Made by a program: the position numbers and the translations under genes. A DNA stretch of 63,983 nt, counting the filler, from Stramenopiles sp. TOSAG23-6 (taxonomy: Eukaryota): assembly GCA_900128565.1 (NCBI GenBank). It is 3 parts of 3 records of this genome, joined end to end, with 100 filler letters (N's around TTAATTAATTAA, not from the genome) between each part and the next. Parts side by side here need not be neighbours in the genome. Positions count along the whole stretch, not along the records: positions 1 to 23,912 come from LT636008.1; 2 more parts are not named here. One strand, written 5' to 3'. The notes below the pieces were generated by a model. The model was given only the letters and a program-made list of their open reading frames with translations, was not told where the DNA came from and did not search any database. Numbering within the stretch: the first letter of the stretch is position 1; the number at the start of each line of letters is the position of its first letter. Positions 1 through 61,991 of the stretch are shown piece by piece.

Positions 1-23
1 TACAAATATACAGCAGGGAAATC

Positions 24-76
24 AAAATACACAAAATACACAAAATACACAAAATACATCACAAAATACACAAAAT
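24..76 (+). repeat. Short tandem repeat of (C)AAAATACA, about 5-6 units
   Basis: Reads aaaatacac aaaatacac aaaatacac aaaatacatc acaaaatacac aaaatat. Confidence 0.8.
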
Positions 77-1828
77 ATGTCAGGCTGTACATTAAAAATT
101 GGTCGTGTCGCTGATTGGGGTCTTCGAGTAATTATAAAATTACAAATGTGCAAATCAAAAGATCAAACTCCATATGTTTTAGTATCTGTGACTGAATTAA
201 TTGCATTGTCAGTTTGGCAATTTCGTTTAAGTGGTCCTTCTTTAACTAGTTTATTTTTTGGTACAAATAACACTAATAAGCAGACTGAAAATATTTTTTC
301 TTTAGATACAGTTTCATCGAACTCAATATTTACTGTGCTTTCGTGTGCAGCACCAATTATGATAAATCAAACTCGAACTTCTTTGCAAGCTTCAGCATTA
401 GCTGGAGAACTATGTCGTTTGAAAAAACAAAATGAAAAAGAGCAAGTAAAAGCAAAACAGAACCATATTGCTATACAAAGTTGGATGAAATCTCAAGAAC
501 AAGATGATGCTACAATGAAAAAAAAACTAAAAGCTTTAATAGAAAGTATAAAACTAGAGTCTGTAAAACTAAAACACCTTAAAATGAAAATAAATCAAAA
601 CGATCTTGAAAACTCGAGGATATTTCCAATGCAAGATAAAACAAAAATACAGATAAAACATCTTCGGAACGAAAATAATAATAATAAAGTTGATGATGAT
701 AGTTCTACACAAAATATAAAAGATCTTGATAGAAAATATAAAATTTTAGAAGAAAAAGTGTCTACCATGGAAGCCAATGCGATGATGCAAATTGATAATG
801 TTATCCACGCAGCGGAGGAAAGGCTCGCAAAAGTAAAAAATGATGAATTGAAAATAAAACCAACAAAATTTGAAGAAACTCCTGAAACTGATGAAACGTT
901 TGTTAAACCTATGACGGAAAATAGAATTTTATGTTTATTTGAAGAGAGAAATGTGTCGCAGGCGAAAGAACAAAAACGAATTTTAGAGATGGAATTAAAA
1001 GCCTTACATTTTGACAAAAGTTATGAAAATATTAAACATCAAAACGAAACTTTGCAAATACAAAATGAAGAAAATGGGCGAAAGAGTCCTCATATATATC
1101 CAATCACGAAACGGGTTTTACTTCACCGACAAAGAGAGACTCCATTACTTCTTGGAGGTGTGTTTAATGGAATGCTAGTCAAGACGAAGTCGGCTGCAAA
1201 TTTATTAAATACAGAATTATCATGCTGGGAAACACTTTTTGGCGAAGATATGGCAGAGCATACTCGAAAAGAATATGCCAAGTGGGGCGATTCGGTTGCA
1301 GAAGTTGACGGTGAAGTCGATCCATCTGATGGATCGATCAAACTAAAAAATTTTCTTGTTCATGATCCAAGTCTACCTCATATAAATGGAGGTGCTTGGT
1401 GGCCAACCGAAATGCTTGAACCTGCCCAATTAGATACATTACGTTTGAAAAAAAAAATGAATAATTATCAAATCAAGCAAATAGTAAATAGTACAAAGGA
1501 TGCTTGTCAAGATGAGAAAGTTGAAATAGACACCTCAAATAATGAAAATGAATCTTCAAAATTTGATCTTGTAAAGACTGAAAGTTCCAATGTGATCAAA
1601 AATCTCCCAATGATGCGATGGAAACAACTTTTTGGTGAAGATGTGGCAGAGCATACTCGAAAAGAATATGCCAAGTGGGGCGATTCGGTTGCAGAAGTTG
1701 ACGGTGAAGTCGATCCATCTGATGGATCGATCAAACTAAAAAATTTTCTTGTTCATGATCCAAGTCTACCTCATATAAATGGAGGTGCTTGGTGGCCAAC
1801 TGAATTATTGACATATCTTAAGATATGA
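77..1828 (+). CDS. Hypothetical coiled-coil protein with two near-identical ~60-aa C-terminal domains; N-terminus uncertain (contig edge)
   Basis: 583-aa ORF; repeat LFGEDxAEHTRKEYAKWGDSVAEVDGEVDPSDGSIKLKNFLVHDPSLPHINGGAWWPTE occurs twice. Confidence 0.7.
   Translation: MSGCTLKIGRVADWGLRVIIKLQMCKSKDQTPYVLVSVTELIALSVWQFRLSGPSLTSLFFGTNNTNKQTENIFSLDTVSSNSIFTVLSCAAPIMINQTRTSLQASALAGELCRLKKQNEKEQVKAKQNHIAIQSWMKSQEQDDATMKKKLKALIESIKLESVKLKHLKMKINQNDLENSRIFPMQDKTKIQIKHLRNENNNNKVDDDSSTQNIKDLDRKYKILEEKVSTMEANAMMQIDNVIHAAEERLAKVKNDELKIKPTKFEETPETDETFVKPMTENRILCLFEERNVSQAKEQKRILEMELKALHFDKSYENIKHQNETLQIQNEENGRKSPHIYPITKRVLLHRQRETPLLLGGVFNGMLVKTKSAANLLNTELSCWETLFGEDMAEHTRKEYAKWGDSVAEVDGEVDPSDGSIKLKNFLVHDPSLPHINGGAWWPTEMLEPAQLDTLRLKKKMNNYQIKQIVNSTKDACQDEKVEIDTSNNENESSKFDLVKTESSNVIKNLPMMRWKQLFGEDVAEHTRKEYAKWGDSVAEVDGEVDPSDGSIKLKNFLVHDPSLPHINGGAWWPTELLTYLKI
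1251..1800 (+). repeat. 157-nt identical direct repeat (1251-1407 and 1644-1800) inside the CDS
   Basis: tggcagagcatactcg...ggtggccaac is identical in both copies. Confidence 0.9.
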
Positions 1829-2161
1829 TTTGTGGTTGCCAACTGAACTATTGACATATCTTAAGATATGATTGGTAAAAGCATGCATGATGATGACATG
1901 ATGTGGAAAAATAGAGAACTTTTGTTCAATTGTCAAATGTTTGTTAAAACAGTTGGTGAAGGTAATCTTATAAATAAAAGAGGTAAATGTTTTAAATGAA
2001 ACTGTAGTACGTACTACTAAGTATACCGTTTTATATAATAAATTAACAAATGAAGTATTGTAGCTGTATGGTCCTGCTGGGTATCACATTTCAGTGCCTA
2101 CACAATCATTTGCTATGCGTACGTGTACATCATGTAGTTTTAGTGTTGCTTGTTATTGTTG

Positions 2162-3049
2162 TTACCTCTTCTTCTTTTTCTTCTTAGAAGAAGAAGATTT
2201 CTTGGCTGTCTTCTTCTTGCCTGCTTTCTTGGCTTTGACTGGGCTGCCGTCCTTCCACTCCCCATCGTGGATTACTTTGCCTTTTTTATCCTTCTTGACG
2301 CCATAACCATGAAACTCGCCATCCTTATGGTCACCCACATACGTATTGCCGGTTTTTATCCAGTAGAACGTACCCTTGCCTTCTTGCTTGTCGTTAAAGT
2401 AGTCACCAACATACGTGTTACCACTTGCATGTATTTTGGAAAAACATTTCAAAAAATATATATTGTTAGGTACAAAGTTTCGTACGAAAAAAATATTAAA
2501 TTTGAAATTAAAAAAAACTAAAACATACATAAAGGTATATGAGCCCTTACCTTGGCGTTTATCATCCTTGTAGTCACCAACGAACTTGGCACCATCGACA
2601 TAGATCATGGTACCTTTACCTTCGCGTTTGGCATCCTTCCACCAGCCATCATATTTTGCTCCGCTCTTGTAGACCATCTCGCCCTTGGCATGGTACTTGC
2701 CATCCAACATGTTGCCAGTGTATTTAGAACCATCGTGCTCCTTGTACACGCCATGGCCGTTTGCAATGCCATCCTTCAATTCGCCTGCATATTCATCGCC
2801 ATTCGCCCAGCTCTTCTCGCCCTTACCATTCTTCACACCACCCTTAAATGTAAAAACGCCCCTGTAATCCTCCGTTCCGAGGTTCAACAGTGCCATCTGA
2901 GATGCTGTGTCTCTATCTTCCTTCGCTCTGATGTTTGCTTCCTCCGCTCTGATCTTGGCTTGGAGTTCGGCGGCCTCTTCATAGTTCTCTTCATCAACTG
3001 CCTTGTTTTTCGCTTCCCTGAGCGCTCTCAATATCGCTGAATCGGTCAT
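2162..3049 (-). CDS. MORN-repeat protein with N-terminal UVR-like motif and Lys-rich tail; one intron
   Basis: Repeats GxGxxxYxxGxxYxGxW/Y; AVDEENYEEAAELQAKI motif; the insert MYVLVFF...SKIH is an intron read in frame. Confidence 0.9.
   Translation of the reverse strand: MTDSAILRALREAKNKAVDEENYEEAAELQAKIRAEEANIRAKEDRDTASQMALLNLGTEDYRGVFTFKGGVKNGKGEKSWANGDEYAGELKDGIANGHGVYKEHDGSKYTGNMLDGKYHAKGEMVYKSGAKYDGWWKDAKREGKGTMIYVDGAKFVGDYKDDKRQGKGSYTFMYVLVFFNFKFNIFFVRNFVPNNIYFLKCFSKIHASGNTYVGDYFNDKQEGKGTFYWIKTGNTYVGDHKDGEFHGYGVKKDKKGKVIHDGEWKDGSPVKAKKAGKKKTAKKSSSSKKKKKKR
2429..2528 (-). other. Family intron in MORN gene (exact boundary ambiguous by 1-5 nt)
   Basis: GTATGT...CGTACGAAACTTTGTACCTAAC...TTTTCCAAAATACAT interrupts a MORN repeat. 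Confidence 0.8.
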
Positions 3050-3417
3050 GTTTTTGCTGTTGTTTGTATCTGGTTTGTATCTAAAAACTTAAAAGATCTT
3101 GTGATTAGATTAGTTACTAACAGTTACTAGTAGTAGTAGTCCTACGTGTAAGTGTCGTGGTCAAAAGATCGCAACCTAAAAGATATCGATCGGCGTATTT
3201 CGATTCGTACCATTTTTTTGTACGTAAAAACCGCTTCACGAATTTTCAATACGGATTTTGAAAAATCGAAAAGAGCAGAAACTATTTTTTTGACAGCCAT
3301 TCCCTTGGCCAGAGCGTCCATAATATTTTTGATTACCTTTGCGAATTGCAATAATATTAAACTGTATTACACATTGTGTCGCACACGATTTCCCCCTAAG
3401 GTTTTGCTGTTGCAAAG

Positions 3418-6400
3418 ATGGTACAATTCGGACACCAGTTAACTGCAAATGCCGTCGTCGAGTGGCAAAATCATTACATGGATTACAAACGTTTGAAGAA
3501 ACTGATTGTAGAAGTATGTCGAGGTCACCGTGAGCTCTTACAACAGCAGCAAGACGCCCCACAACGTTCCGTAGTCATACCATTGGCTGGAGACCATTCA
3601 GCTCCATCATCTTCAACGTCATTGTTGTCACATATACTTTCGCCTGCTCCTATCACCGCGAAGAGTAGTGATGACACTGTGGATGCAAAAATAGCTTCTG
3701 GAAATCAGGCATCGGATCTTGAGGAAACTTTCATAAGTGGTTGTCTTGAAGAAGTCCAAAAAGTCGATGAGTTCTTTATATCGAAGCTCCAAGAGTGTCG
3801 CGAACGATTAGAACTTTTGACAAATGTACAAGGGCATGAATCATTAATTGAAGATGAAATCGATGAAGATACAAATCTTCTCAAGGATAAAAAGGAACTT
3901 TCTAAGTCTGATTCATCGAAGTTGAAACTCATTGATAAAGAACGAAAGGCATATGAAGGTTCTATTCATCGTGCATGTACAGATTTGTATAGATGTATTT
4001 GTTTATTGGAAAATTTTGCTGTTTTAAATTTGACCGGATTCATTAAAATCTTAAAAAAATTTAAGAAAAATATGGTCAAGGTTGAGACAGAATATTTGTT
4101 GAAAAGAGAGAATACAAATTTTCATCGTAGTAAAAGCTACGGTAATCTTTACTCATCTATCCCGACTGCGCTACCACTATTATGTTCTGGTGGGAAAGAA
4201 GTAGCAAAATTAGTAATGGACAATGTGAGATCGCATTCTGTATTCTTTCATTATTCATTTCAAATTTGAAAAATTCAATTTTATTTTTTTTTAATTTTTT
4301 TATCCGAATCTGAAATTGTATATTGTTTTTCATACCTAACAAAAAAAAACAAATTTGACATATTTTTCATCAACACATTTTTCGCATCATGAAGATTCAA
4401 TTAAAGGTCTTTCAAATGATCTTGAAATATTATATGCAAATAAGTTTTGCGGAGGTGAGCGTTCTGTGGCTCGGGCGCTTTTGCTTGTACGTTGTCCNTT
4501 TTATTTTCAAAAAATTTTTTAAAACCCTGACCCTAAATTTTTTTTTAAACCCTAACCCTAAAATTTCATATGCCTAACAAATCTCAAATATGAAAACATA
4601 TTTTTTTACAATACTTGTAAAACAAAAACCAAAAAGTGACTGGTATATGTTTCGATCTGGTCTCCACTCAGGAATGCTTATAATTCTATTGTTTTGGGTC
4701 ATCTGGATTAATGTACGTTTTTTTTTAAATATGAAATTAATTTTTTTTCATACGAAATTCCGTACGTAACAAATTTCGAATTTGAAATATTTTTTCAAAT
4801 GCATGTAACTCCATTTAAAGAGACGGTATACGCTCTCATGGTGCATCCACTACTCCCTGTGTTTCGATTATTATTGTCTTGTGTATTAATTCAGTGGTGT
4901 TGTGGAATATCTGTTTATCTGTGGACCAAGTACTTATTTCTTATGAATTTCATTTTTTTATTTTTCATACGAAATTTTGTACCTAACGATTTTTCAAGTT
5001 TTTTTTTTGAAATATTTTTTCACAATACAATGCTCGTATTAATTATATATACTTATTCGGATTAGATCCAGAAAATTCTCTCACATATGAGCAGATATTT
5101 TATTCTGCAACAAACAACTCAATTTTACTCCTTGTATCGATTCTCTTATTTAGCAAGCTAAAAATAGAAAATATGTTTTTTCTCCATATATTATTGACTG
5201 GTATTGTTCCCTTGATGATCACATTTTGGTTAATTTATTTATGCCTCCATACAAAATGGAGTTGGAGAATAATTAAAGAAATTGGAAAAGTTTTTTTTGC
5301 TCCATTATTTCCTGTGACTTTTCTTTCGTCATTTATTGGTGATATTGCGACATCTCTAGTGAGGCCTTTAACAGATTTGGCATATACAGTATGTTATATG
5401 GGAAGTGGCGGATTCGTTCTTCATCATCAAGAATTATCTAAATCACACAATTTGATGGCTTGTACGTTTTCATCATGGGTTAGGGTTATCTTTTTATGTT
5501 TTCTTAGTTAGTTTTGTAGGTAACAAAACAAAATTTACAAAGAAAAAAAATAATATATATATATTTTCACAATATATGTACGTCATCAGACACATATACC
5601 AGAATCATTCTTCCTATTATTTGTTTTCTACCTTTGTGGCTTCGAATGCAACAAAATCTCCGAGTGTACTATGATACAAGAAAGCGCTGGCCATCAATGT
5701 ACGTGTTCATTTCAATTTTTTGTCTAAATTATTTTTCAAACGAAATTTTGTACGTAACAATTTTTTTTTGAAATATTTTTTCATAATCCATGGGTAATGC
5801 AATGAAGTATGCAGTATCACATGTAGTAGTCTTATTTGGTACGATGCATCCTATGTGGGCTAAGACAGATTATTCTCATGCAAACAGTTTTGAATGGGCA
5901 TGGATTACATCTTACTTGATTGCCACAATATATGCATTTCTTTGGGACATAAAAATGTACGTTTTCAAAATTGAATTTTGAATATTTTTTTCATAGAAAA
6001 TTTTGTACCTAACAATTTTTTATTAAAAAAATATTTTTCCAAAATACATGGATTGGGGTTTGCTTTCACGTCCGGATGGATTGCGAAAGCATTTAATGTT
6101 TGGTGTCAATAATCGACATCTTTATTATACTGCAATAGTATTTGATGCTTTAGGTCGTTTTATTTGGTGCCTTACTCTATTACCTGGCTCAAAATCTGTC
6201 GGTCATTTTCTTGAAACTCCAAATTATGTTTTTTTTCTATCTTGTTTAGGACCTCTTGAAATATTACGTCGCTGTATGTATGTTTTACTTTTTTTTTTGT
6301 ATGATTTTTTTTTCATACGAAATTTCGTACCTAACTTTTTTTTTCCATTAAAAAAAAAAAAAAATTCACATTATATGTGGTCTTGGTTTAGATTAGAACA

Positions 6401-6599
6401 AGAACATTTGCATAATACTATGGGATTCCGTAAAGTAAATTTTATTCCATTACATTTTGAGACGCCAGTCAAAAGAATGAGCAGGAAATCACATGATAGA
6501 GTCGCGGGAAAATCCGTATTTTTTGAGATGATTTTTGTTTTTGTTTTTGTAGTGACAATTTCTATTTATGCCGCATTTACTGGATCAAAAAACAGTTAA
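3418..6599 (+). CDS. XPR1: SPX-EXS phosphate exporter (XPR1/SYG1/PHO1 family), 9 exons: 3418-4239, 4379-4486, 4617-4712, 4805-4929, 5031-5461, 5578-5698, 5792-5956, 6050-6277, 6377-6599
   Basis: SPX start MVQFGHQL..EW...YMDYKRLKK and LNLTGFIKILKKFKK. EXS motifs WDIKMDWGL and EILRRCMWSWFRLEQEHL are restored after splicing, and all exon phases are consistent. Confidence 0.92.
4240..4378 (+). other. Intron 1 of SPX-EXS, GT...AT (139 nt)
   Basis: TCT|GTATTC...CATACCTAAC...CAACACAT|TTT TCG restores the frame. Confidence 0.75.
4487..4616 (+). other. Intron 2 of SPX-EXS, GT...TT (130 nt), containing CCCTAA repeats
   Basis: CTT|GTACGT...TGCCTAAC...ACAATACTT|GTA AAA gives ALLLVKQK. Confidence 0.75.
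4713..4804 (+). other. Intron 3 of SPX-EXS, GT...AT (92 nt)
   Basis: AAT|GTACGT...CATACGAAATTCCGTACGTAAC...TCAAATGCAT|GTA ACT. Confidence 0.8.
4930..5030 (+). other. Intron 4 of SPX-EXS, GT...AA (101 nt)
   Basis: ACC AA|GTACTT...GTACCTAAC...CACAATACAA|T GCT CGT ATT AAT TAT gives WTNARINYIYLFGLDP, which fits the EXS pattern W..xxINY..IF..DP. Confidence 0.8.
5462..5577 (+). other. Intron 5 of SPX-EXS, GT...AT (116 nt), diverged
   Basis: GCT T|GTACGT...GTAGGTAAC...CACAATATAT|GT ACG TCA; 7-nt direct repeat TGTACGT at the junctions. Confidence 0.75.
5699..5791 (+). other. Intron 6 of SPX-EXS, GT...AT (93 nt)
   Basis: TCA AT|GTACGT...GTACGTAAC...ATAATCCAT|G GGT AAT gives RWPSMGNAMKY. Confidence 0.85.
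5957..6049 (+). other. Intron 7 of SPX-EXS, GT...AT (93 nt)
   Basis: AAA AT|GTACGT...GTACCTAAC...CCAAAATACAT|G GAT TGG restores WDIKMDWGL exactly; no AG after the branch motif. Confidence 0.9.
6278..6376 (+). other. Intron 8 of SPX-EXS, GT...AT (99 nt)
   Basis: TGT AT|GTATGT...GTACCTAAC...CACATTATAT|G TGG restores RRCMWSWFRLE. Confidence 0.9.
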
Positions 6600-6687
6600 G
6601 GTTTTTTAAAATAATAAAGTACATTTTTTATATTTTTTTTGAATACTTTTTGTATAAACTCAACTTTCACACTATACTCCTCAAGAA

Positions 6688-8943
6688 CTACTTATGGACG
6701 CTTGGTTTGCACTGCTTTTTGTGTAATTTCCAGTGGATCCTTTGACATGTTTTAGAACAGTAAGCTACAGACTTACAACGCCCGCATTGGAAGAAATTAC
6801 ATTTATCTTCTTTTACTGTAGAACAATTCAAGCAGGCCATAATGGTACTACGCTTTAAGGCAGCAGTTCGCGAGTTATTTACTGGACCCCAGACGCTTAA
6901 ATGTTTCATATCCTCTACAACACTTGTTCTCCGTGCTTTTCGGAACCATTTTTGCGAAGTTTTCAAACATTTATTAACACCATGCCCTTCTCTATAGCAG
7001 ACACCCAACTGGAACTGTGCATCTAAATTATCTTGTTTCGCAGCCTTCTCAAACAGTTTTACTGCTTTTTCAATAGATTTAGTAACAACAGATCCTTCTT
7101 TATAGCAGATCCCTAAATGACATTGTGCTGCTGGATGGCCTTGTTTCGCAGCCTTTTCATAATACGCCACTGCAGTCTTTCGACATTTAGTAACTACTTC
7201 GCCCTTAGCGTAGAAAGCACCTACATTATACTGTGCATCTGAATTATCTTGTTCTGCAGCCTTTTCAAACCACTTAAATGCAGTCTTTGGACATTTACCT
7301 TCGCCAAAATAGTACAAATAGGCTAGAGCACACTGTGCCTCTGGATGACCTTGTTCTGCAGCCTTCTTATACCACTTAAATGCAGTCTTTGGACATTTAC
7401 TAACACTTTCGCCATAAAGGTAACAATAGCCTAGAGAGTACTGTGCCTCTGGTTGATCTTGTTCTGCAGCCTTCTTATACCACTTAAATGCAGTCTCTAG
7501 GCATTTATTAACACCCCAGCCATTGTAGTATGAATCAGCTAGAAACAACTGTGACAAATCATGACCTCGATTCGCAGCCTTTTCATACCAAATTGCAGCA
7601 GTCTTCAGCGATTTAGATACACCCTCGCCAGAATGGTAGCAGTTACCTGTATTATACTCTGACAATAAATGACCTTGTTCCGCAGCCTTTTCATATAACT
7701 CAGCTGCAGTCTTTAGACATTTTTGAACAACTTTACCTTCCTTATAACAGCAAGCTAGATTGTACTGTGCGAAGAAATAACCTTGTTTCGCTGACTTCGC
7801 ATACCACATTACTGCAGTCTCCATATTTTTATTAACACCACTACCATCCTCATATAGCCCAGCAAGACGACACTGTGCCACTCGACAGCCCTGTTCTGCA
7901 GCCTTTTCATACCACTTTGCTGCTGTTTTATAACAAGTGGCGAAATCATCCCCATACGTATCACCGACTGCGTGGCAGAGACCCAGTTGAAACTGTGCTT
8001 CCATACAACCCTGTTCCGCAGCCTTTTCATACCAAATTGCAGCAGTCTTCAGCGATTTAGATACACCCTCGTCACCATTATAGTAGAAATTACCACATTG
8101 AAGCTGGGCCATCTTACAGCCTTGTTCCGCAGCCTTTTCATACCAGTGCAATGCAGTTTTCATACATTTACTAACATTCATACCACCTTGATAGATAGTA
8201 GCTAGGTATAATTGTGCCTCTAACTGACCTTGTTCTGCCGACTTCTTATACCATGCTATCGCAGTCTCCATACATTGATCAATACCTTCCCCATCTGAAT
8301 AACAGCGACCGATATTATATTGGGCCACTGAATTACCTTGATTTGCAGCCTCCTTATACCAACCTGCTGCTTTTTCCAAGGACTTTGTAACACCCTTGCC
8401 TTCCGTGTAGTTTTGAGCAGTAACAACTTGTGCTGTTATATGACCTTGTTTCGCAGCTCTCTCAATCCAGTTTGCTGAGGTTGTTATATTTTTAGTAACA
8501 CCATCGCCTAATAAGTACCACTTTCCTAATTCATACATTGCCCTCGGAAACCCGTTTTCCGCAGCTTTCTTAACCCACTTTACTCCAGTCGTCTCATTTT
8601 TAGTAACACCATCGCCTTGAGAGTAGGCCATTCCTGTCCAGAACTGTGCATCTATGTGACCTTGTTCGGCAGCCTTCTCGAACCATTTGACTGCAGTTTT
8701 TGTACTTCTAGGTACACCTATTGCGCAACAATAGAATATGCCAATACGATACTCTGCTTCTATATGACCTTGATGCGCAGCCTTTTCAAGCCACCCAAAC
8801 GCAGTCTTTTGGCACTTACGAACACCTTGACCATTCTCATAGCAGCAAGCTAAAACAAACTGTGCCTCCATTTTACCTTCTTTCGCAGCGTCCATCAAAA
8901 CCGTCAAATCTTCATCATATATTTCATTAGTTGCACCAGTCAT
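6688..8943 (-). CDS. SEL1-like repeat protein with C-terminal MYND zinc finger
   Basis: About 17-18 repeats of AxxWYEKAAEQGxxxAQxxLG; C-terminal CLNC...CGRCKSVAYCSKTCQRIHWKLHKKQC. First ATG at 8943 (ORF track starts at a GTG at 8964). Confidence 0.92.
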   Translation of the reverse strand: MTGATNEIYDEDLTVLMDAAKEGKMEAQFVLACCYENGQGVRKCQKTAFGWLEKAAHQGHIEAEYRIGIFYCCAIGVPRSTKTAVKWFEKAAEQGHIDAQFWTGMAYSQGDGVTKNETTGVKWVKKAAENGFPRAMYELGKWYLLGDGVTKNITTSANWIERAAKQGHITAQVVTAQNYTEGKGVTKSLEKAAGWYKEAANQGNSVAQYNIGRCYSDGEGIDQCMETAIAWYKKSAEQGQLEAQLYLATIYQGGMNVSKCMKTALHWYEKAAEQGCKMAQLQCGNFYYNGDEGVSKSLKTAAIWYEKAAEQGCMEAQFQLGLCHAVGDTYGDDFATCYKTAAKWYEKAAEQGCRVAQCRLAGLYEDGSGVNKNMETAVMWYAKSAKQGYFFAQYNLACCYKEGKVVQKCLKTAAELYEKAAEQGHLLSEYNTGNCYHSGEGVSKSLKTAAIWYEKAANRGHDLSQLFLADSYYNGWGVNKCLETAFKWYKKAAEQDQPEAQYSLGYCYLYGESVSKCPKTAFKWYKKAAEQGHPEAQCALAYLYYFGEGKCPKTAFKWFEKAAEQDNSDAQYNVGAFYAKGEVVTKCRKTAVAYYEKAAKQGHPAAQCHLGICYKEGSVVTKSIEKAVKLFEKAAKQDNLDAQFQLGVCYREGHGVNKCLKTSQKWFRKARRTSVVEDMKHLSVWGPVNNSRTAALKRSTIMACLNCSTVKEDKCNFFQCGRCKSVAYCSKTCQRIHWKLHKKQCKPSVHK

Positions 8944-9084
8944 GATACCTTTACAAGCATACACGCCTAAGAGTTACTTTCCTTAAATAAATACGTCGTC
9001 GCGCAATAATATCTCTCGAGACTCGTGACTCGACCACCGTTTTGACTGACGTCCAATTCTCAATTCGCGCATTTGTACGTAAAG

Positions 9085-9096
9085 CCCTAACCCTAA
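9085..9096 (+). repeat. Interstitial (CCCTAA)2 telomere-like motif upstream of the SEL1 gene
   Basis: ccctaaccctaa. Confidence 0.6.
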
Positions 9097-9530
9097 TTGA
9101 TGTGTTGTTTGTATATGTATACCACTTTTCATATCATAATATTCTTTTAGATTTCTTCCGTTTTATTGCGTTTCATTGTTCATTGTAACCTTTCTTTCAA
9201 TTTTTTTTAAACTTTTGGTTTTTCTTTATTCTTCTCCATTATTATTATTAATGTTTTTTATTCGTCTTAGGATCAAATTACTAGTAATTTACCATGTGCA
9301 CGAAATCCGAAAAAAATGCAAGAGTAAAAAAAACAATATATTGGACTTTTTTTTTCGCTATGAGATTCGTACCATTTTTTCGTAAGTAAGTAACAACCTA
9401 ATAATAACGGACGAGGCGAATTACCTGACTACACGACTACACGAGTACTACTTTCTTCTAACGGTTGTTTTCATTTTTTTACTAAAACTAAGATTGAAAA
9501 GAACAGCATAAAATTTTACTTACTCCAACA

Positions 9531-10166
9531 ATGAAAACATTTTCTATACTCATTCTTTGCTGTGTTATAACACTTATAACAATGGGTATACACGTGGATG
9601 CTGGGGATGCTGCTGATGGTGGTGATCGTGAAGAACTTGATACTGTCAGTCGTATCCTTCGTGGAATTGACCCTAGTTTGGCAAACTTAGCGGCACAATT
9701 TCACGAATTTGGTGTTACACGCTACGAAGATTTTGGCGGCCTTGAACTGGAAGATCTAAAAGAAATCGGCGTAGATGACGTTTTGCGAGATATATTCATG
9801 ATATGGCAAAAAGAAGCCAGGAAAGCGGATCAGGTTGCACGTTCAACTTCTTCAGAGATACAACGAATATTAGCAATTGCTGATATTCGTCATATCCTTG
9901 AACAAATTGAACGTAATTTAGGCCGCCACGCAGAAGAGTTTTTGCGAGCGTTTTCGGGTGGCCCAAAAGATTTTGACTTAGATTTTGAAGGTTTTCAAGA
10001 TGAAGATGAAGGAAATTTGGCCAGAATTCAACAATTTCTTGAACAACCTAGCCACGATGATCGCGATAATATCACACATTTCGCAAGAGAATTCGCAAAT
10101 CATGTGTGGCTGCGTCGGCCCACACAAAGACGGACCCGGGCTGTGTCCCGTCTTGGGGCGCTTTGA
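9531..10166 (+). CDS. Secreted hypothetical protein with possible SAM-like helical domain
   Basis: Signal peptide MKTFSILILCCVITLITMG; segment FHEFGV..EDFGGLELEDLKEIGV. Confidence 0.65.
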   Translation: MKTFSILILCCVITLITMGIHVDAGDAADGGDREELDTVSRILRGIDPSLANLAAQFHEFGVTRYEDFGGLELEDLKEIGVDDVLRDIFMIWQKEARKADQVARSTSSEIQRILAIADIRHILEQIERNLGRHAEEFLRAFSGGPKDFDLDFEGFQDEDEGNLARIQQFLEQPSHDDRDNITHFAREFANHVWLRRPTQRRTRAVSRLGAL

Positions 10167-10512
10167 AGATGAGGCCACAAAGCTCCGCGATAAAAAGATG
10201 AGGAAAACATCAGACTACCTGGGGATTCAATAGAATCACTGGATTAGGCCTCAAATCCTCAGCCAAAAAAAAAGAAAAACAAACAGAAAAATAAAATTAA
10301 AAAAAAAACAAGGGTGTTAAAAAAAATCGAAAATTTTTATCTTTTACTTACGTGTACTATGTATCTCTTTATTTATCTAGTTACATTCAATGTTGAAGTA
10401 TTATATATATGTAACTTTGTACATTTACCTCGTATATTTTTCAAATAATATATATTATTTGATATTATTCTTGTCCAAATATGGATTGCAGTATTTACCT
10501 CTACACACACTA

Positions 10513-11939
10513 CTACTTTATATTTTTAACTGTATTTGAATCATTTGTTGTCCTCAGGAGTACAAATAATAAGTAGCAACTTAAACACAAAAGTAGTATT
10601 ACTAGAACAAGTACAACAATATTAAATGTCTTGTCTTGATTTCCTCCTGTATTTTGAAAAATAGTTCACATTCAAAATTTGTTAGATAAAAAATTTCGTA
10701 CGAAAAAAAAACAATTGAAATGAAATGAAAACATACTCGACACATTAGCTGATATGGCTTTCATTCTTTCGTTTTGTACACTCACTACTCTTCCTGAAAT
10801 TGTTTTCATTCGCTTTTCTATTGATATTTTTTCTGAATTAGGTTTTTTTATTAATTCTTTCATTTTTTTAATTTCCATTAATTCTTTTATTTCTTTTATT
10901 TCTTCTTTTGATTTTTTTAAGTTTTCTGTGGATTCTAATACATTTTCAGTCTCAACAATCCTAGGTGAAGTTTCACATTTTGCATCTTCTTCTAAAGTAC
11001 AAGGCTGGATTTCTGTTCCAGGTGTACAATAAGTACACGCTTTGCAAAAATAATCTTTATAAGTCTTACCATTTTTTTGCCTTTCGTAATAGTTTCATCT
11101 TGTTTCTATACACTAATCCTTCATTTGGACATTTATTAACACATTTCAATTGAGATGGATCAAAAGCGTATTTGCAATTTAAACAATCATCAATATTTGG
11201 TCCAGAACAACCGTCGTTACCACATAAAGGATGGCACATTGAACATTTTCTGTCTTGATAATTATCTTTTTCTCGACCTGTACAACCACCACAAACTTTA
11301 GTAGTACTATTAGTGCTATTTTCAATACATTTTCTATCCCAATATTTTCCTAGTTGACACGTTGTGCACGGTTTACAAATTACAGGTTCAATCACTAATT
11401 TTGCAGTAAATTTTTCGTTGTTTACGACTACCTGAGTTAGAGCAGGTTTAAATCTATACGTGTCAACAGTTGGGGATCCTGGTATGGATCCTCGAGAGCA
11501 CACTTTAGCCTTCATACACTCAGCATCTCTCTTGGCTGGAACTGCGCTATAGTTAGTTGGACATTCTGATACACACTTACCATTGAAACGAACATTATAG
11601 CAATTATTACAGTGTTCTTTTAAAGTTGTTCCATATGCTCGACAACCTTTATCTCCACATTCTTGATGACATGCTTTGCAAATAACATCCTGGTCCCCTA
11701 TGCAACCTTCTGCGTACATACCAATAGGACATTTACCACAAGGAGTACAAACACCTTCAACTGAAAATGTATTTTGGAAAAATACTTCAAAAAAAATTCG
11801 TTAGGTACGAAAATTCGTATGAAAAATATATTCGAATTTGAAAAAAAATAAAACATACATTCTCCAATGGGACACTCATTCACACATTTATTATTTGACA
11901 TGAATCGCTTACAATGACACGTTTGATGTGTGCATGTAC
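10513..11939 (-). CDS. Mirror copy of the furin-like Cys-rich membrane protein fragment
   Basis: Reverse complement of 11974-13400. Confidence 0.6.
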
Positions 11940-11973
11940 ATGTGCTGTGAAAAAATATTTTTTCACAGCACAT

Positions 11974-13400
11974 GTACATGCACACATCAAACGTGTCATT
12001 GTAAGCGATTCATGTCAAATAATAAATGTGTGAATGAGTGTCCCATTGGAGAATGTATGTTTTATTTTTTTTCAAATTCGAATATATTTTTCATACGAAT
12101 TTTCGTACCTAACGAATTTTTTTTGAAGTATTTTTCCAAAATACATTTTCAGTTGAAGGTGTTTGTACTCCTTGTGGTAAATGTCCTATTGGTATGTACG
12201 CAGAAGGTTGCATAGGGGACCAGGATGTTATTTGCAAAGCATGTCATCAAGAATGTGGAGATAAAGGTTGTCGAGCATATGGAACAACTTTAAAAGAACA
12301 CTGTAATAATTGCTATAATGTTCGTTTCAATGGTAAGTGTGTATCAGAATGTCCAACTAACTATAGCGCAGTTCCAGCCAAGAGAGATGCTGAGTGTATG
12401 AAGGCTAAAGTGTGCTCTCGAGGATCCATACCAGGATCCCCAACTGTTGACACGTATAGATTTAAACCTGCTCTAACTCAGGTAGTCGTAAACAACGAAA
12501 AATTTACTGCAAAATTAGTGATTGAACCTGTAATTTGTAAACCGTGCACAACGTGTCAACTAGGAAAATATTGGGATAGAAAATGTATTGAAAATAGCAC
12601 TAATAGTACTACTAAAGTTTGTGGTGGTTGTACAGGTCGAGAAAAAGATAATTATCAAGACAGAAAATGTTCAATGTGCCATCCTTTATGTGGTAACGAC
12701 GGTTGTTCTGGACCAAATATTGATGATTGTTTAAATTGCAAATACGCTTTTGATCCATCTCAATTGAAATGTGTTAATAAATGTCCAAATGAAGGATTAG
12801 TGTATAGAAACAAGATGAAACTATTACGAAAGGCAAAAAAATGGTAAGACTTATAAAGATTATTTTTGCAAAGCGTGTACTTATTGTACACCTGGAACAG
12901 AAATCCAGCCTTGTACTTTAGAAGAAGATGCAAAATGTGAAACTTCACCTAGGATTGTTGAGACTGAAAATGTATTAGAATCCACAGAAAACTTAAAAAA
13001 ATCAAAAGAAGAAATAAAAGAAATAAAAGAATTAATGGAAATTAAAAAAATGAAAGAATTAATAAAAAAACCTAATTCAGAAAAAATATCAATAGAAAAG
13101 CGAATGAAAACAATTTCAGGAAGAGTAGTGAGTGTACAAAACGAAAGAATGAAAGCCATATCAGCTAATGTGTCGAGTATGTTTTCATTTCATTTCAATT
13201 GTTTTTTTTTCGTACGAAATTTTTTATCTAACAAATTTTGAATGTGAACTATTTTTCAAAATACAGGAGGAAATCAAGACAAGACATTTAATATTGTTGT
13301 ACTTGTTCTAGTAATACTACTTTTGTGTTTAAGTTGCTACTTATTATTTGTACTCCTGAGGACAACAAATGATTCAAATACAGTTAAAAATATAAAGTAG
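11974..13400 (+). CDS. Furin-like/TNFR Cys-rich type-I membrane protein, 5'-truncated at the palindrome centre; 2 introns and a probable homopolymer frameshift near 12835-12841
   Basis: CHxxCxxxGCxG..xxCxxC repeats; C-terminal TM segment FNIVVLVLVILLLCLSCYLLFVLL; stop at 13398-13400. Confidence 0.75.
12055..12146 (+). other. Family intron, GT...AT (92 nt); in-frame alternative CAG at 12152
   Basis: GAA T|GTATGT...CGTACCTAAC...CCAAAATACAT|TT TCA GTT. Confidence 0.75.
13177..13266 (+). other. Family intron with canonical GT...AG ends (90 nt)
   Basis: TCG A|GTATGT...CGTACGAAATTTTTTATCTAAC...TTTTTCAAAATACAG|GA GGA. Confidence 0.8.
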
Positions 13401-13746
13401 TAGTGTGTGTAGAGGTAAATACTGCAATCCATATTTGGACAAGAATAATATCAAATAATATATATTATTTGAAAAATATACGAGGTAAATGTACAAAGTT
13501 ACATATATATAATACTTCAACATTGAATGTAACTAGATAAATAAAGAGATACATAGTACACGTAAGTAAAAGATAAAAATTTTCGATTTTTTTTAACACC
13601 CTTGTTTTTTTTTTAATTTTATTTTTCTGTTTGTTTTTCTTTTTTTTTGGCTGAGGATTTGAGGCCTAATCCAGTGATTCTATTGAATCCCCAGGTAGTC
13701 TGATGTTTTCCTCATCTTTTTATCGCGGAGCTTTGTGGCCTCATCT

Positions 13747-14382
13747 TCAAAGCGCCCCAAGACGGGACACAGCCCGGGTCCGTCTTTGTGTGGGCCGACG
13801 CAGCCACACATGATTTGCGAATTCTCTTGCGAAATGTGTGATATTATCGCGATCATCGTGGCTAGGTTGTTCAAGAAATTGTTGAATTCTGGCCAAATTT
13901 CCTTCATCTTCATCTTGAAAACCTTCAAAATCTAAGTCAAAATCTTTTGGGCCACCCGAAAACGCTCGCAAAAACTCTTCTGCGTGGCGGCCTAAATTAC
14001 GTTCAATTTGTTCAAGGATATGACGAATATCAGCAATTGCTAATATTCGTTGTATCTCTGAAGAAGTTGAACGTGCAACCTGATCCGCTTTCCTGGCTTC
14101 TTTTTGCCATATCATGAATATATCTCGCAAAACGTCATCTACGCCGATTTCTTTTAGATCTTCCAGTTCAAGGCCGCCAAAATCTTCGTAGCGTGTAACA
14201 CCAAATTCGTGAAATTGTGCCGCTAAGTTTGCCAAACTAGGGTCAATTCCACGAAGGATACGACTGACAGTATCAAGTTCTTCACGATCACCACCATCAG
14301 CAGCATCCCCAGCATCCACGTGTATACCCATTGTTATAAGTGTTATAACACAGCAAAGAATGAGTATAGAAAATGTTTTCAT
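13747..14382 (-). CDS. Mirror copy of the secreted hypothetical protein
   Basis: Identical to 9531-10166. Confidence 0.6.
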   Translation of the reverse strand: MKTFSILILCCVITLITMGIHVDAGDAADGGDREELDTVSRILRGIDPSLANLAAQFHEFGVTRYEDFGGLELEDLKEIGVDDVLRDIFMIWQKEARKADQVARSTSSEIQRILAIADIRHILEQIERNLGRHAEEFLRAFSGGPKDFDLDFEGFQDEDEGNLARIQQFLEQPSHDDRDNITHFAREFANHVWLRRPTQRRTRAVSRLGAL

Positions 14383-17225: not shown

Positions 17226-17313
17226 TTCTTGAGGAGTATAGTGTGAAAGTTGAGTTTATACAAAAAGTATTCAAAAAAAATATAAAAAATGTACTTTATT
17301 ATTTTAAAAAACC

Positions 17314-23836: not shown

Positions 23837-23912
23837 ATTTTGTGTATTTTGTGATGTATTTTGTGTATTTTGTGTATTTTGTGTATTTTGATTTCCCTGC
23901 TGTATATTTGTA

Positions 23913-41500: not shown

Positions 41501-42186
41501 TTATCTGATAGATCTAAATGTGTGACACTAACATTCTTATTATCTTCTAATGCTCTTGTGATGCGTTGTGGAAAATATTTCATAGAAAAAAAATCATTAG
41601 GTACAAACTTTGGCACGAAAAAAAAAATAAATTTGAAATTCATGATGAAAACGTACATGGCAGCTGCACCAGTATCACCTATATTATTTGACCGAAGGAT
41701 AATTGTTGTTACAGTTTCGTTAGTACGAAGTTTTTCAGCAAGTTTCAAAGCACCATCAGCTCCAATATCTAACCATGTTAAATCTATTTTACGAGCACCT
41801 TTCGCAAGAATGTCAATGATATCATTTACCTTGTTCGTACCAGTAGATGCCTGATAGTCGTGAAGAGTACAATATCGTTTTGACGCAGTGATAGTTTGCA
41901 TTTTTTTACTAACACTAATTGGTAAGGATGTTAGAACTGACCGAAGCTTAGGTGATAGACACATACGATCTTGCTTTATTCTTGGCTTTGGAGACCTCTG
42001 ACTCGACGAGGGCCAATCTTTTATGGCGCCCAGTGTTCTTGTTGAAATTCTAACTTTGATTTCACGTTTTGTCTCTTTGACAAGTAACTCACTTTCAATA
42101 TTTTTTTCATCTTGATTGAATTCGTTTTTTTGCCTATTAGCACGAGCCTTTCGCCGTGCATCTCGTCTCTCTTTCGCCGAAGACAT
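38521..42186 (-). CDS. RNI-like leucine-rich-repeat protein with long repetitive charged C-terminus; one intron
   Basis: LRSNNIGDTGA, LDLSDNNIGDEG and LDISGNDMTSLGA motifs; internal tandem repeats containing N bases. Confidence 0.8.
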   Translation of the reverse strand: MSSAKERRDARRKARANRQKNEFNQDEKNIESELLVKETKREIKVRISTRTLGAIKDWPSSSQRSPKPRIKQDRMCLSPKLRSVLTSLPISVSKKMQTITASKRYCTLHDYQASTGTNKVNDIIDILAKGARKIDLTWLDIGADGALKLAEKLRTNETVTTIILRSNNIGDTGAAAMYVFIMNFKFIFFFVPKFVPNDFFSMKYFPQRITRALEDNKNVSVTHLDLSDNNIGDEGIKAITMSLIKNTKKMVHTKNGVKKTNTIKTKDKLPLGRQLRVLDISGNDMTSLGASFLTDGLQKIFKDENSIDYYNDTDHPNPNPNDTDHSINEEENKSSTIETISENIIKVSPRLNSHEYLKRFAGTNSLELRWAGNKFMPLTIASKLGKYKMRNPEAPPDRTNSQNLNSNLTGNTNDIFSIDRQTISSTIAIYNDSFGVSYDILCQIVDHRPFAISKFTQEKMDTKSKELNIEEAKDSEYVEKIKTIERKKTTEQQIKWDPSFKKRIDDIVAQRAKVKSIKTKLQKLNTVKENDNLXDENLDDWKLKNGRWVNEGVNSXDNISTKPKVKEVKNXNNENLDDENLDDWKLKNGRWVYEGVNSTDNISTKPKVKEVKNVNNENLDDENLEDWELKNGRWVKEKDGNWVRERVSGKDNTKIDHNKKANTHQEFEEDPDRNIHCVEDIDEIKALAKPSAKDGIIEKHYPLKPSLQLPGIKKKLSEDEIFNDKLGDSEVSSKIKQKDNIAADQLNSKIASILSDRRKTHIDDGVAASRMLAVFFASAFNRDDKKHIPNSSNVSKTTDNHDTPSLSQPDKESKMXKLKEEXLKHEKEVXIXQNEKDAMRVXHNKNLKDEDKTISTPKRKIPEXXDXXXXXXEXVKTKINEAKRXAXAEGNPLKXGAAEMLTVFFASAFNSNDKKYISNLSNDSNTTDNDDTDNDDTPSLSQEDKESRVSQLNEESFIDKSEDSDSETYARNSGSTTKDNDDSKVKVQNAPISEKNTKVGDKVTTPNKQLGNNNNEEILTFDTGLEEYMRKFAALEKQMGTINSDEIHFIAANQEEDEIFVQETLEDAAFNVTSDKYVTPVALNTLEIFFEAAGLNTFKHVSTASFTSEFSNHDRCVKNINTSYLSKAVKSVPVETPANTVHEETPVNAVLQNTPAIIVPEETSNMIPSENEYISSPRQKKKGFLKRLFRATSSRIEKTRSSISNEVSHIVHITRRENDIH
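41561..41656 (-). other. Family intron, GT...AT (96 nt)
   Basis: GCC AT|GTACGT...GTACCTAAT...CCACAACGCAT|C ACA restores the LRR helix GAAAITRALEDN. Confidence 0.87.
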
Positions 42187-59762: not shown

Positions 59763-61991
59763 ATGCTTCCGTCAGCACTCATAGCACGCATCATTTGCTA
59801 CAATGTTGCAACAACTGAGGATGCTGCAAAACTACGGCAAGTAAGTAGTAACTTCAAAGATAGGATCATACCAATGGCGTTAAATGACGCGGTGCTCTCG
59901 TTAAAACCTTGTGGTGAAGACAGTTTTGTGTCGGACCTTATGGACAAGGACGGAGAGTTACAGCTCAATTGTGGTGATTCAGTCTCGATGGCACGAAGAG
60001 ATATATATCTCGACCTGATTTTTCCTGGTTGCACGTGCAAATCCATTCACATTGTAGGTCCTTGTTTTAAAAAATATAACTTGGATTGTGAACTTCTTGA
60101 GGGATCTAGACCACCTTTGATTCATGAATTATGCAATGCAACGACATGTGAGGAGTTCTTAGAAGCCGCTGGAAAAGTTCTCGATAAAGACGCTTACAAT
60201 CCAGATCCATCCTCGGAACCATTGAATCCAGATTTTCCGTTGACCGATCCAGCCGAATATATGAGTAATCACATACCTGTTCTAGCTAAATATTGGGTCC
60301 CCTTTGATTCACCAGCGCTTGTCGAAGGTCCTCCTCCTGACTTATCAGATTTAAATCATGAGATACGCCTCAAGTCAGGAAATAAAGACATGTATGAATA
60401 CATTGATCAAGATCAAGAAGATTCTTTTGATGATCATGGTTTGTATTTACCTTATAGACATCGTGGTTGTACCTACAGTTGTGCTATTTTAAAACAGTCA
60501 GAACAAGTTAAACAAACAGAACATTTGAATAGTGAAGGAATGCTAGTGGGTGTCTTGCTAATTTTAGAAGCTAATTCTGAATACGTCGAGTATGAATTGG
60601 ATATAAGTAATTCACCTTATTTCTCTGATGTAGTTAACAAACACCAACGTAAATATGTATGTTTTATTTTTTTTTAAATTTCAATTTTTTTTTCATACGA
60701 AATTTTATACCTAACAATTTTTTTAGATTTTTTTTGAAATATTTTTCCAAAAATACATGCACGAGAAGGAGTAGGTATTTTGGATAGCGCAGTGCCAGTA
60801 GAACTAGCTTCAAAACTTCGCCAGCAGCTAAATGAGTTGGCATGCAAGCAACATCCTTGGGGTATTGATTATCATCCCCATTCCAATAACATTGTTGTTG
60901 ACATTGTGCACCCAGCGCTTTACTGTTACGTTAAAAATGAAACACAAACAAATGCCAAAAGTCAATCGCTTCCTCAGAGCAAAACAGATGAAAGACAATA
61001 TGATTCTTGGGGGCGTCCATATGAAACCTCTCGATACCAATGGTTACCAACAGAATTTTTTATCATTGATGATGGTCGAGTTTCCATTGATGGATATATA
61101 AATAATCTTGTACCTCGAGAGACATATGAACAGCTTTATAAAAATTTACAAAATTTGTTTTCACATTGCATTCCACTTATTGAAGCAGTGTATTCTTATG
61201 GTTGTGCTGTACGAGAGCAATTGCGTTCTGAAGAAGATGAGATGGATTTTAATGATTCTAAACCAGAGCCTATTCACCCTTCTCATTGTTCACTTCATGG
61301 TAGACAACTGCAAGTGATAACCAAAATAGTTGATTATGAGTTGTCACCAGGGCAGTCTTACGAAGGTGTATGGCACGTGGAAGGAATGAGTCATGAAGAA
61401 ATTGTTGCTACTGTCATTTGGGTAGCTGAACGTGATGATGATCTGGAGGGTGGAGATTTGCTTTTTAAACGTGCATTTTTAAAGAATGAAGCCGAATTTA
61501 TCTTTTCTACTGTGGCGTCAGATCGTCATTCTGTATTAAATGATATCATTGATGAAGGATTAGTTCCATTAGGTCGCATTACAACTCCACGTGGACGCCT
61601 CCTGTGTTTTCCCAACAGTATGTTTTATTTTTTTTTTGTATGAATTTTTTTTTCATAGGAAATTTTGTACCTAACAATTTTTTTTCAAACTTTTTTTTAA
61701 ATATTTTTCGAAAATACATGCCATGTTCATAAAGTAACGCGACTTTTGAATAAAAATAAAGAAAATGATGATGCAACGAGTGAAAAGGCAAGGCGACGTA
61801 TCGTGGTGTTTTTCATTATAAATCCTGATAAGCGGATAGTATCAACAGCAGATATTTCACCGCAGCAAAAGGTTGCCGGTGGACATATGTCACGAAATGA
61901 AGCATTGGACAATCGGCTCAAATTGATGCAGGAACGAAAATACGCCAAGCAAGATTGGAATGTCCGGGAGATTGAGTTATGTGAGCATTAA
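59763..61991 (+). CDS. DUF4246-like (2OG-Fe(II) oxygenase-like) protein; exons 59763-60656, 60759-61617, 61720-61991
   Basis: DYHPHS...DIVHPALY; YQWLPTEF; YINNL; LQVITKI; YEGVWHVEG..HEEIVAT; GRLLCFPNSHVHKV; RRIVVFFIINP. Confidence 0.85.
60657..60758 (+). other. Family intron, GT...AT (102 nt)
   Basis: TAT|GTATGT...ATACCTAAC...CCAAAAATACAT|GCA; contains an in-frame stop. Confidence 0.82.
61618..61719 (+). other. Family intron, GT...AT (102 nt)
   Basis: AAC A|GTATGT...GTACCTAAC...CGAAAATACAT|GC CAT gives FPNSHVHKV. Confidence 0.85.

Follow-up and report, generated by a model that had tools for sequence, protein, structure and literature searches.

Repeated GT...AT introns in an SPX-EXS gene of a MAST-3 stramenopile

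The AG at the end of introns is among the most constant signals of eukaryotic genes, and the few lineages that break it (Fritillaria, Amoebophrya, euglenids, and the diplonemids, in which non-canonical introns have reportedly been described) are the main source of insight into the flexibility of the spliceosome and the conversion of transposons to introns. A locus in assembly GCA_900128565.1 of Stramenopiles sp. TOSAG23-6, a marine stramenopile of the MAST-3 group (Nanomonadea), raises the question of how an intron can be removed when it ends in something else. In the 63,983 nucleotides that we analysed (three parts of this genome joined end to end, hereafter the window), positions 3418–6599 (+) resemble a gene for a protein with SPX and EXS domains, divided by eight AT-rich spacers. 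An initial inspection made from the DNA alone (the sequence-only reading) held that the gene is complete and that none of the eight spacers ends in AG.

Here, we ask whether this gene is intact, where its spacers are cut out and by what means. We consider it probable that the spacers are precisely removed from RNA at the borders given below, and we hold with good confidence that the locus is best read as a functional gene carrying introner-type introns, whose spliceosome accepts ...CAU in place of YAG ahead of the 3' cut. This reading draws on homology at eight of eight borders and RNA at two, on a copy of the same repeated element in a DUF4246 gene that fixes the GT...AT register, on the copy number of the element, and on its presence in DNA.

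An SPX-EXS gene in nine exons

The locus opens with an ATG at 3418 and closes with a TAA at 6597–6599. Between them lie nine open pieces, with the frame changing from one to the next, separated by AT-rich spacers of 92–139 nt that have a GC content of 0.16–0.24 and are similar to one another. We placed the 5' border of each spacer at GT and the 3' border where the reading frame and the alignment with orthologues demand it (Table 1). All eight excisions preserve the frame, and the exons join into a stop-free product of 772 aa. Pfam matches both domains in order, SPX (PF03105, E 4.3e-28) at the N-terminus in exon 1 and EXS (PF03124, E 1.3e-18 in exon 5) in successive segments of exons 5, 6, 7 and 8.

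A profile-free search with exon 5 against 1.84 billion representatives gave 264 EXS relatives. The best full-length relative, P0002 (755 aa; its contig measures 3,910 nt), aligned by BLASTP over residues 1–751 with residues 1–769 of the spliced product, at 48% identity and 733 bits, and from its first residue onward exon 8 also aligns with the solved chains of human XPR1/SLC53A1. The predicted product is a complete SPX-EXS protein of the XPR1/PHO1/SYG1 type (SLC53), as the sequence-only reading had proposed from the exons. Members of this class are phosphate exporters whose export is regulated by inositol pyrophosphate; they share the layout of an N-terminal SPX and a C-terminal EXS domain, and the protein shows no oddity of its own. 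The gene is probably functional rather than decayed, and its family suggests a role as a phosphate exporter.

Alignment with orthologues also locates the borders. In an alignment of 41 sequences, junctions 2, 4, 5, 6, 7 and 8 have no indel column within 5 residues, and junction 3 is free of gaps against the two closest orthologues. The sequence-only reading had joined nine exons in consistent phase; the eight introns and the open 772-aa product stand, and its donor for intron 1 does not. That donor, GTGAGA at 4225, leaves a gap of 5–7 residues against the orthologues P0002 and P0003, which GTATTC at 4240, 15 nt downstream, closes (733 against 724 bits in BLASTP, and 86 against 91 gap columns). 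With the donor corrected, junction 1 is gap-free and no indel lies within 10 residues of any junction in the comparison with P0002, so that the junction indels named in advance as evidence against the gene model did not appear; from residue 268 to the end, gaps fall solely within exons 5 and 8.

The order of intron ends read from the sequence (AT, TT, AT, AA, AT, AT, AT, AT) is confirmed. Short direct repeats flank every junction and leave each intron with between 2 and 8 equivalent pairs of borders; when all of these were enumerated, none ended in AG. All eight introns begin with GT. As had been noticed at the outset, intron 7 has no AG from its branch motif to its 3' end, ahead of the conserved MDWGL block; the next AG lies 40 nt into the exon. 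A GT-AG solution was rejected for every intron: in six of the eight, the closest AG further downstream would break the frame, and in introns 5 and 8, where the frame would be kept, its use would remove residues conserved among orthologues.

A word-indexed search with exon 5 returned one protein, P0001 (GSMAST32.ASY1.ANO1.891.1, an assembled coding sequence in EukProt), a 446-aa public model of positions 4590–6599. It is made up of exon sequences of this gene, yet it enters introns 4, 6, 7 and 8, and it omits the MDWGL stretch, the start of exon 5 and other conserved blocks. P0001 is thus a mis-spliced model of the SPX-EXS locus, wrong at most junctions. Such errors would be expected from a pipeline restricted to canonical sites. 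Among longer proteins matching exon 5 this model was the sole one, and a search of protein databases with P0001 returned no short transcript-derived protein fragments of the gene, and hence no extra junction evidence.

The junctions in RNA and DNA

A search of public sequencing runs located the stretch in seawater samples. We compared contigs from three RNA runs (X7, X8 and X9) and one seawater DNA metagenome (X2) with positions 2000–11900 of the window, and what follows refers to the best matches listed; a further 8,481 pieces and 208 joints may hold more evidence. X9 is a polyA metatranscriptome, X8 comes from the same sample, and X7 is a non-polyA RNA library. In X9, record 25 passes from 4437–4483 directly to 4614–4710, with intron 2 absent, and record 28 passes from 5887–5954 directly to 6048–6125, with intron 7 absent; the exon pieces on either side show 0 differences in both records. 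Because CTTGTA and ATG repeats make the products identical, the joints 4483/4614 and 5954/6048 correspond to removal of 4487–4616 and 5957–6049. X8 record 21 begins exactly at 6048, preceded by 13 unplaced letters, and no junction-spanning piece was found in X7 or X8 among the matches listed. The last 23 letters of X9 record 25 are unplaced and the contig does not enter intron 3; it is not counted as a third junction.

In the DNA metagenome X2, contigs extend out of exons into introns with a depth matching that of unique sequence (record 2, 4968–5488; record 1, 2416–3812). DNA thus carries the introns, and polyA RNA lacks them at two of the eight junctions, 2 and 7. A protein-guided scan of the metagenome contigs with exon 5 and two orthologues yielded 168 pattern matches, 0 of them confirmed.

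Assembled contigs do not distinguish a spliced transcript from DNA without introns that has entered an RNA library, and the spacers might accordingly be removed from DNA, or the RNA might come from intron-less alleles, with no unusual RNA splicing involved. We regard this as highly improbable. The joined contigs derive from polyA-selected libraries and have 0 differences to the window exons, X2 records 1 and 2 keep the introns at exon depth in the same population, and the spacers carry splicing signals. Germline-limited elements such as internal eliminated sequences are absent from the DNA of the expressing nucleus; these spacers are found in the metagenome DNA contigs.

That the gene is dead, disrupted by transposons, or else an artefact of assembly, is hardly credible. 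Such an explanation gains from the high copy number of the repeat, from a perfect palindrome in the assembly and from scaffold gaps within copies of the element. However, the nine exons are open and collinear with the orthologue without junction indels, eight of eight excisions keep the frame, independent metagenome contigs share the exon–intron joints, and the element behaves in the same way in other genes (DUF4246 and leucine-rich-repeat). The initial argument against a transposon-disrupted pseudogene, that the exons show no decay, is strengthened by the two junctions joined in polyA RNA contigs. As for the palindrome, positions 1–11956 are mirrored with 0 mismatches as their reverse complement at 11957–23912, and runs of N begin at 23913; because this mirror of 11,956 bp is exact, the second SPX-EXS copy within it (~17314–20495, −) is almost certainly a chimera of assembly or amplification and not a duplication.

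Two further observations concern the RNA. In X7, bins bearing the element are very deep, up to ~2,000 against ~1–2.6, and the polyA contigs also hold short pieces of the element with unlike flanks. These could be unspliced precursors, stable excised introns or carried-over DNA.

A repeated element with GT...AT borders

The introns of the SPX-EXS gene are copies of one AT-rich element of ~90–140 nt. Its consensus runs from GTAYGTTTT through a T-rich stretch, a central 12-nt palindrome (TTTCRTACGAAA), TTTYGTACCTAAC and a second T-rich stretch to GAAATATTTTTCCAAAATACAT; the signals within it are a 5' GTAYGT, the branch motif GTACCTAAC and a 3' end AATACAT. The pattern greatly exceeds chance: the window contains 20 occurrences of GTACSTAAC, where 0.47 would be expected, and 28 of TTTCATACGAAATTT with at most 2 mismatches, where 1.15 would be expected, about half of both counts being duplicated because of the assembly palindrome. 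A hidden Markov model (HMM) built on nine copies found 13 full-length unique copies in ~52 kb of unique sequence, plus several partial ones. They split genes of several kinds (SPX-EXS, MORN-repeat, cysteine-rich repeat, IQ-motif, leucine-rich-repeat and DUF4246), and because a high-copy element also splits these other genes, a point that the sequence-only reading had not made for this locus, the feature is a property of the genome rather than of the SPX-EXS gene by itself.

The element is also very numerous in the seawater community of X2, as judged from depth: bins that contain it reach a summed depth of ~1,300–13,000, against ~4–14 in most element-free bins (one at 40.5), across 5,996 contig pieces. 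Extrapolating from 13 full copies per ~52 kb to a genome of ~20 Mb, a size taken from MAST-3 single-cell assemblies as given in part of PMC5778133, would put the total at several thousand copies.

The tally comprises 17 copies: 16 lie in the window, and the last, in the metagenome contig L001, is the one extra copy that a search for the element pattern in metagenome contigs gave. At the 5' end, all 17 copies have G1, T2 and A3, while G5 occurs in 15 and T6 in 16. The TAAC branch motif occurs in 15 of 17, at 34–54 nt from the 3' end and with T-rich sequence after it. The 3' end is nearly as constant (A-7 in 17 copies, A-6 in 16, T-5 in 15, A-4 in 13, C-3 in 15, A-2 in 16, T-1 in 15), and the first exon base downstream is G in 12 of 17. 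The terminal dinucleotide is AT in 14 copies and TT, AA and AG in one each; a YAG-type end occurs in 0 of 8 introns of the SPX-EXS gene.

These features resemble major (U2-type) introns up to the last step: a GT start with an extended 5' consensus is present, as are a branch motif (CTRAY) and a pyrimidine-rich tract, and the 3' YAG is missing. The element also shares with introners that its numerous similar copies lie in genes unrelated to one another and that each makes up a single intron. Introners were reportedly described by Gozashti et al. as transposon-like repeats that create introns. Conservation is strongest where a major spliceosome reads an intron, at GUAYGU, at the CUAAC core of the branch motif and in the U-rich tracts, and this suggests that the copies are spliceosomal introns with a differently specified 3' site. 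Four copies (introns 4 and 5, plus those at 60657 and 11858) carry an unused AG downstream of the branch motif and ahead of the 3' end, so the cut does not simply fall at the first AG past the branch; nor is it set at a fixed distance from the branch A, since that distance ranges over 34–54 nt. In every case it comes after the conserved terminus A-A-U-A-C-A-U. A reading as minor (U12-type) introns was rejected. The U12-type consensus has a 5' [AG]TATCCTT and a branch site TCCTTAAC at ~10–26 nt from the 3' end, signals that the 5' GTAYGT and the more distant branch motif of the element mismatch.

At the exact centre of the element lies a perfect 12-nt palindrome, TTTCGTACGAAA (for example at 47785–47796), and GTAC occurs three times per element, at the 5' site, at the centre and just upstream of the branch motif. 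Partial or degenerate copies at 30473–30531, 45878–45920, 46944–46984, 48849–48894 and 51785–51825 keep the palindrome and the branch motif and differ at their ends. Some degenerate copies seemingly end in AG, such as TTCTACAG near 51740 (−), and may be older copies that have evolved canonical ends.

The placement of the borders themselves admits one alternative. The two bases ahead of GT repeat the final dinucleotide of the intron in 12 of 17 copies (AT in 10, TT in 1, AA in 1), and in these the excised unit could lie 2 nt upstream, as NN+GTAYGT...AATAC, which in the consensus copy would be an AT-AC intron with the terminal AT as a target-site duplicate. For these copies the mRNA is identical under both models, including at both junctions verified by RNA. 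A copy in the DUF4246 gene decides otherwise, as the dinucleotides at its two ends differ (61618–61719, CA against AT). We compared its junction with the first 50 of 120 listed DUF4246 orthologues, 164 having been found: all 50 carry N and 49 carry S, and GT...AT gives N-S where a 2-nt shift gives K-C. The shift would likewise place Tyr at intron 1 where orthologues carry Ser or Ala. Recognition of the 5' splice site involves pairing with U1 and U6, and the invariant GTA with GT at +5/+6 suits such pairing in the GT register. Shifted borders are therefore very unlikely in our view.

The same copy bears on how the element inserts. It leaves no room for a duplicated dinucleotide, and so the terminal AT may be part of the element; target-site duplication is not established for the family, and the 61618 copy contradicts it. 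The ends of young copies also resemble a weak terminal inverted repeat, in that GTATGTTTT aligns, with a single bulge, to AAAATAC read as its reverse complement; of this similarity, GTA/TAC is what 14 of 17 copies retain.

Table 1. Exons and introns of the SPX-EXS gene and copies of the element in other genes (window coordinates).
Feature	Positions	Strand	Borders and remarks
Exon 1	3418..4239	+	Start codon, SPX; N-terminus collinear with P0002 from residue 1; end at 4239 from homology
Intron 1	4240..4378	+	GTATTC...ACACAT, GT..AT, 139 nt; degenerate element copy, branch motif ATACCTAAC; donor placed by homology
Exon 2	4379..4486	+	No gap against P0002
Intron 2	4487..4616	+	GTACGT...ATACTT, GT..TT, 130 nt; one N inside; joined in polyA RNA contig X9 record 25
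Exon 3	4617..4712	+	0 differences in polyA RNA contig X9 record 25; no gap against P0002
Intron 3	4713..4804	+	GTACGT...ATGCAT, GT..AT, 92 nt; element HMM E 1.4e-13; junction gap-free against P0002/P0003
Exon 4	4805..4929	+	Spliced-product alignment with P0002
Intron 4	4930..5030	+	GTACTT...ATACAA, GT..AA, 101 nt; junction rebuilds the orthologue-conserved ARINY block
Exon 5	5031..5461	+	EXS domain begins; profile positions 28–153
Intron 5	5462..5577	+	GTACGT...ATATAT, GT..AT, 116 nt; degenerate copy; gap-free; retains the Cys of most of 15 orthologue rows listed
Exon 6	5578..5698	+	EXS profile positions 163–195
Intron 6	5699..5791	+	GTACGT...ATCCAT, GT..AT, 93 nt; element HMM E 2.9e-16; junction gap-free
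Exon 7	5792..5956	+	EXS profile positions 197–247
Intron 7	5957..6049	+	GTACGT...ATACAT, GT..AT, 93 nt; joined in polyA RNA contig X9 record 28
Exon 8	6050..6277	+	EXS MDWGL block; profile positions 247–320
Intron 8	6278..6376	+	GTATGT...TATAT, GT..AT, 99 nt; element HMM E 9.6e-12; junction rebuilds the conserved RR..W..R.E.EH block, gap-free
Exon 9 and stop codon	6377..6599	+	Spliced-product alignment with P0002
Copy in DUF4246 gene	61618..61719	+	CA before GT, AT at end; fixes the GT...AT register
Copy, first intron of DUF4246 gene	60657..60758	+	GT..AT; in frame, indel-free against most orthologues
Copy in leucine-rich-repeat gene	41561..41656	−	GT..AT; 28-residue repeat register kept, A-I-T of next repeat reproduced
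Copy ending ...ATACAG	10647..10736	−	Sole GT..AG copy among 17; in frame
Copy in MORN-repeat gene	2429..2528	−	GT..AT breaks the frame

Splicing, spread and known systems

We infer the use of the spliceosome and a lariat, the manner of 3'-site recognition and the mode of spread from sequence features, and propose the following model. The element would bring its own signals: a yeast-like 5' site (GTAYGT), a U-rich body with the palindrome, the branch motif GTACCTAAC, a second U-rich tract and the AATACAT terminus. The major spliceosome would cut ahead of the G in GTAYGT and right after the terminal ...CAT (CTT or CAA in mutated copies), at a point 34–54 nt downstream of the branch A, with intervening AGs skipped. 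The 3' site would thus be set by the terminal motif of the element, Y-A-U instead of Y-A-G. Recognition could rely on an altered trans-acting reader of the 3' end, comparable to the duplicated U2AF subunits described for Fritillaria in part of PMC13326754. A second option is a cis aid in which GUA at positions 1–3 pairs with UAC at −5 to −3, possible in 14 of 17 copies; this pairing is unproven and too weak for RNAalifold. As to spread, movement as a small DNA transposon would fit the ends, weakly like an inverted repeat, and the AT...AT flanks common among the copies. Reverse splicing would suit the missing duplicate at 61618 and an insertion context, AT^G, that recurs; the element may move in this way into AT^G sites and duplicate no target.

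Several results weigh against this account. RNA support covers two of the eight junctions in assembled contigs of one sample, which shows that a spliced form exists and not its efficiency or lariats. RNAalifold on 13 copies predicted 0 pairs and no consensus structure, and the pairing of the ends amounts to 3 base pairs in 14 of 17 copies. Rfam gave 0 matches on the whole window, so no small nuclear RNA (snRNA) or other known RNA lies there. The assembly is imperfect, with its palindrome of 11,956 bp, Ns, and gaps within copies of the element. Three copies also complicate the border rule, where frame was tallied over the copies other than 47742 and L001 (the latter with a short downstream exon). 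The copy at 10647–10736 is an in-frame GT-AG intron; that at 11767–11858 is in frame with a cut after ...ACAT but also with one after TTTTCAG 6 nt downstream; and the MORN copy is out of frame under GT...AT, with in-frame choices of 99 nt (GT..CA), 102 nt (AT..AT) and 105 nt (GT..AG at +5). For the MORN copy the 102-nt choice yields the 23-residue period of the three preceding MORN repeats, and these 102 nt, including the flanking AT, are open in the exon frame. At least one exception to a cut after ...CAT stays unexplained. Given these exceptions, the host spliceosome is probably still able to use AG.

Excision without a spliceosome, by euglenid-like pairing of the ends with release of a circle or by another endonuclease–ligase route, would account for a 3' end that is not AG, for ends that weakly resemble an inverted repeat (GTATGTTTT against AAAATAC) and for the short direct repeats beside the junctions, and euglenids are known to have such introns according to part of PMC11282704. 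We find it improbable, as the most conserved positions are those of a spliceosomal 5' site and branch motif, followed by a U-rich tract, RNAalifold predicts no consensus helix in the 13 copies, and the 5' border GT is invariant rather than variable. The variable borders and the stable end-joining helix of the euglenid type are lacking here. Spliceosomal removal with a cut after ...CAU remains our preferred reading. Because the 5' and branch sites stay canonical and the 3' end alone departs, the case isolates the choice of the 3' splice site as the variable.

Non-canonical introns derived from transposons are described in parts of PMC11282704 and PMC7789003 for Fritillaria borealis (AG-AC, AG-AT), Amoebophrya, Polarella, euglenids and Physarum, and each comparison shares something with the MAST-3 element. 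Introners of Micromonas, Aureococcus and dinoflagellates, as covered in sections of PMC11282704, have the same many near-identical short copies, each forming one intron with its own splice signals, in a marine protist with a compact genome. As far as described they are GT/GC-AG, with one site often supplied by a target-site duplication, whereas the MAST-3 copies end in AT and duplication is not established for them. Fritillaria borealis has the same kind of recent introns, derived from miniature inverted-repeat transposable elements (MITEs), with non-AG 3' ends (AC, AT) that the major spliceosome removes (PMC11282704, in part), and divergent U2AF paralogues recognise non-canonical 3' ends there, according to passages of PMC13326754. 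In that animal the 5' end is, from the portions consulted of these accounts, non-canonical too, whereas in the stramenopile element the 5' and branch sites are canonical and only the 3' end departs.

Amoebophrya (Syndiniales) is likewise a marine protist with repeated non-canonical introns, direct repeats of 3–5 nt over the borders and a failure of standard annotation, in the account given in part of PMC7789003. Its introns, in the same partial account, have no preferred border dinucleotides and form inverted-repeat hairpins of 8–20 nt, and no U1 snRNA was found; the MAST-3 element, in contrast, has a fixed GT...AT border, no predicted hairpin and a 5' site of the U1-pairing kind. The nonconventional and intermediate introns of euglenids share non-AG borders, junction repeats resembling target-site duplications and a suspected MITE origin (PMC11282704, in part). 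They are described, in the portion seen, as having neither a polypyrimidine tract nor conserved 5' or branch signals and as needing end pairing, unlike the MAST-3 element.

Full-text literature searches and the main-text portions of PMC5778133, PMC8163842 and PMC12614181 contained no statement on non-canonical introns in MAST-3, and the supplements may hold gene-structure statistics. MAST and stramenopile have 0 mentions in the parts seen of the introner survey PMC12130899, which screened annotated introns and queried unfamiliar splice sites. We describe here an introner family spliced at GT...AT in a new lineage: the kind is known, and the host lineage and the 3'-only departure are without report in the literature searched.

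We lean, by a little over even odds, towards a wider change of the 3' splice-site rule across the lineage, in which most introns would be one introner (~thousands of copies) with a textbook GU 5' site and branch, cut after ...CAU with AGs ignored. If true, this would imply a re-tuned second-step or U2AF-type recognition, and public MAST-3 proteomes, gene counts, completeness estimates and reported pseudogenes would be systematically distorted. Low gene numbers and pseudogenised genes were reported earlier for MAST-3 assemblies in sections of PMC5778133. The host group consists of abundant, uncultured marine grazers, and its gene catalogues and the functional inferences drawn from them probably need re-annotation that allows non-canonical junctions; models of other element-bearing genes in this assembly may carry damage like that of P0001.

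Other features of the window are minor. The DUF4246 orthologues are mostly from diatoms and the other genes are ordinary eukaryotic ones, mostly intron-less, both consistent with MAST-3. Telomere-like CCCTAA/CCCTAAA repeats occur within intron 2 (4520–4565) and also in L001, an unrelated metagenome contig, where they lie in the 3' region (~2270–2330). An intron-less gene at 42474–43901 (+) matches RRM_1, RRM_5 and RRM_8 (PTB/hnRNP-L-like); polypyrimidine-tract binders bear on splicing, with no link shown here. At 47144–47352, two gaps of 44 N lie inside a copy of the element. It is preceded by an exon of the pseudouridine-5'-phosphate glycosidase type (Indigoidine_A, E 1.5e-97) and a short further exon and followed by one of the queuine tRNA-ribosyltransferase type (TGT, E 4.7e-28), and the scaffold may be wrongly joined there through the repeat.

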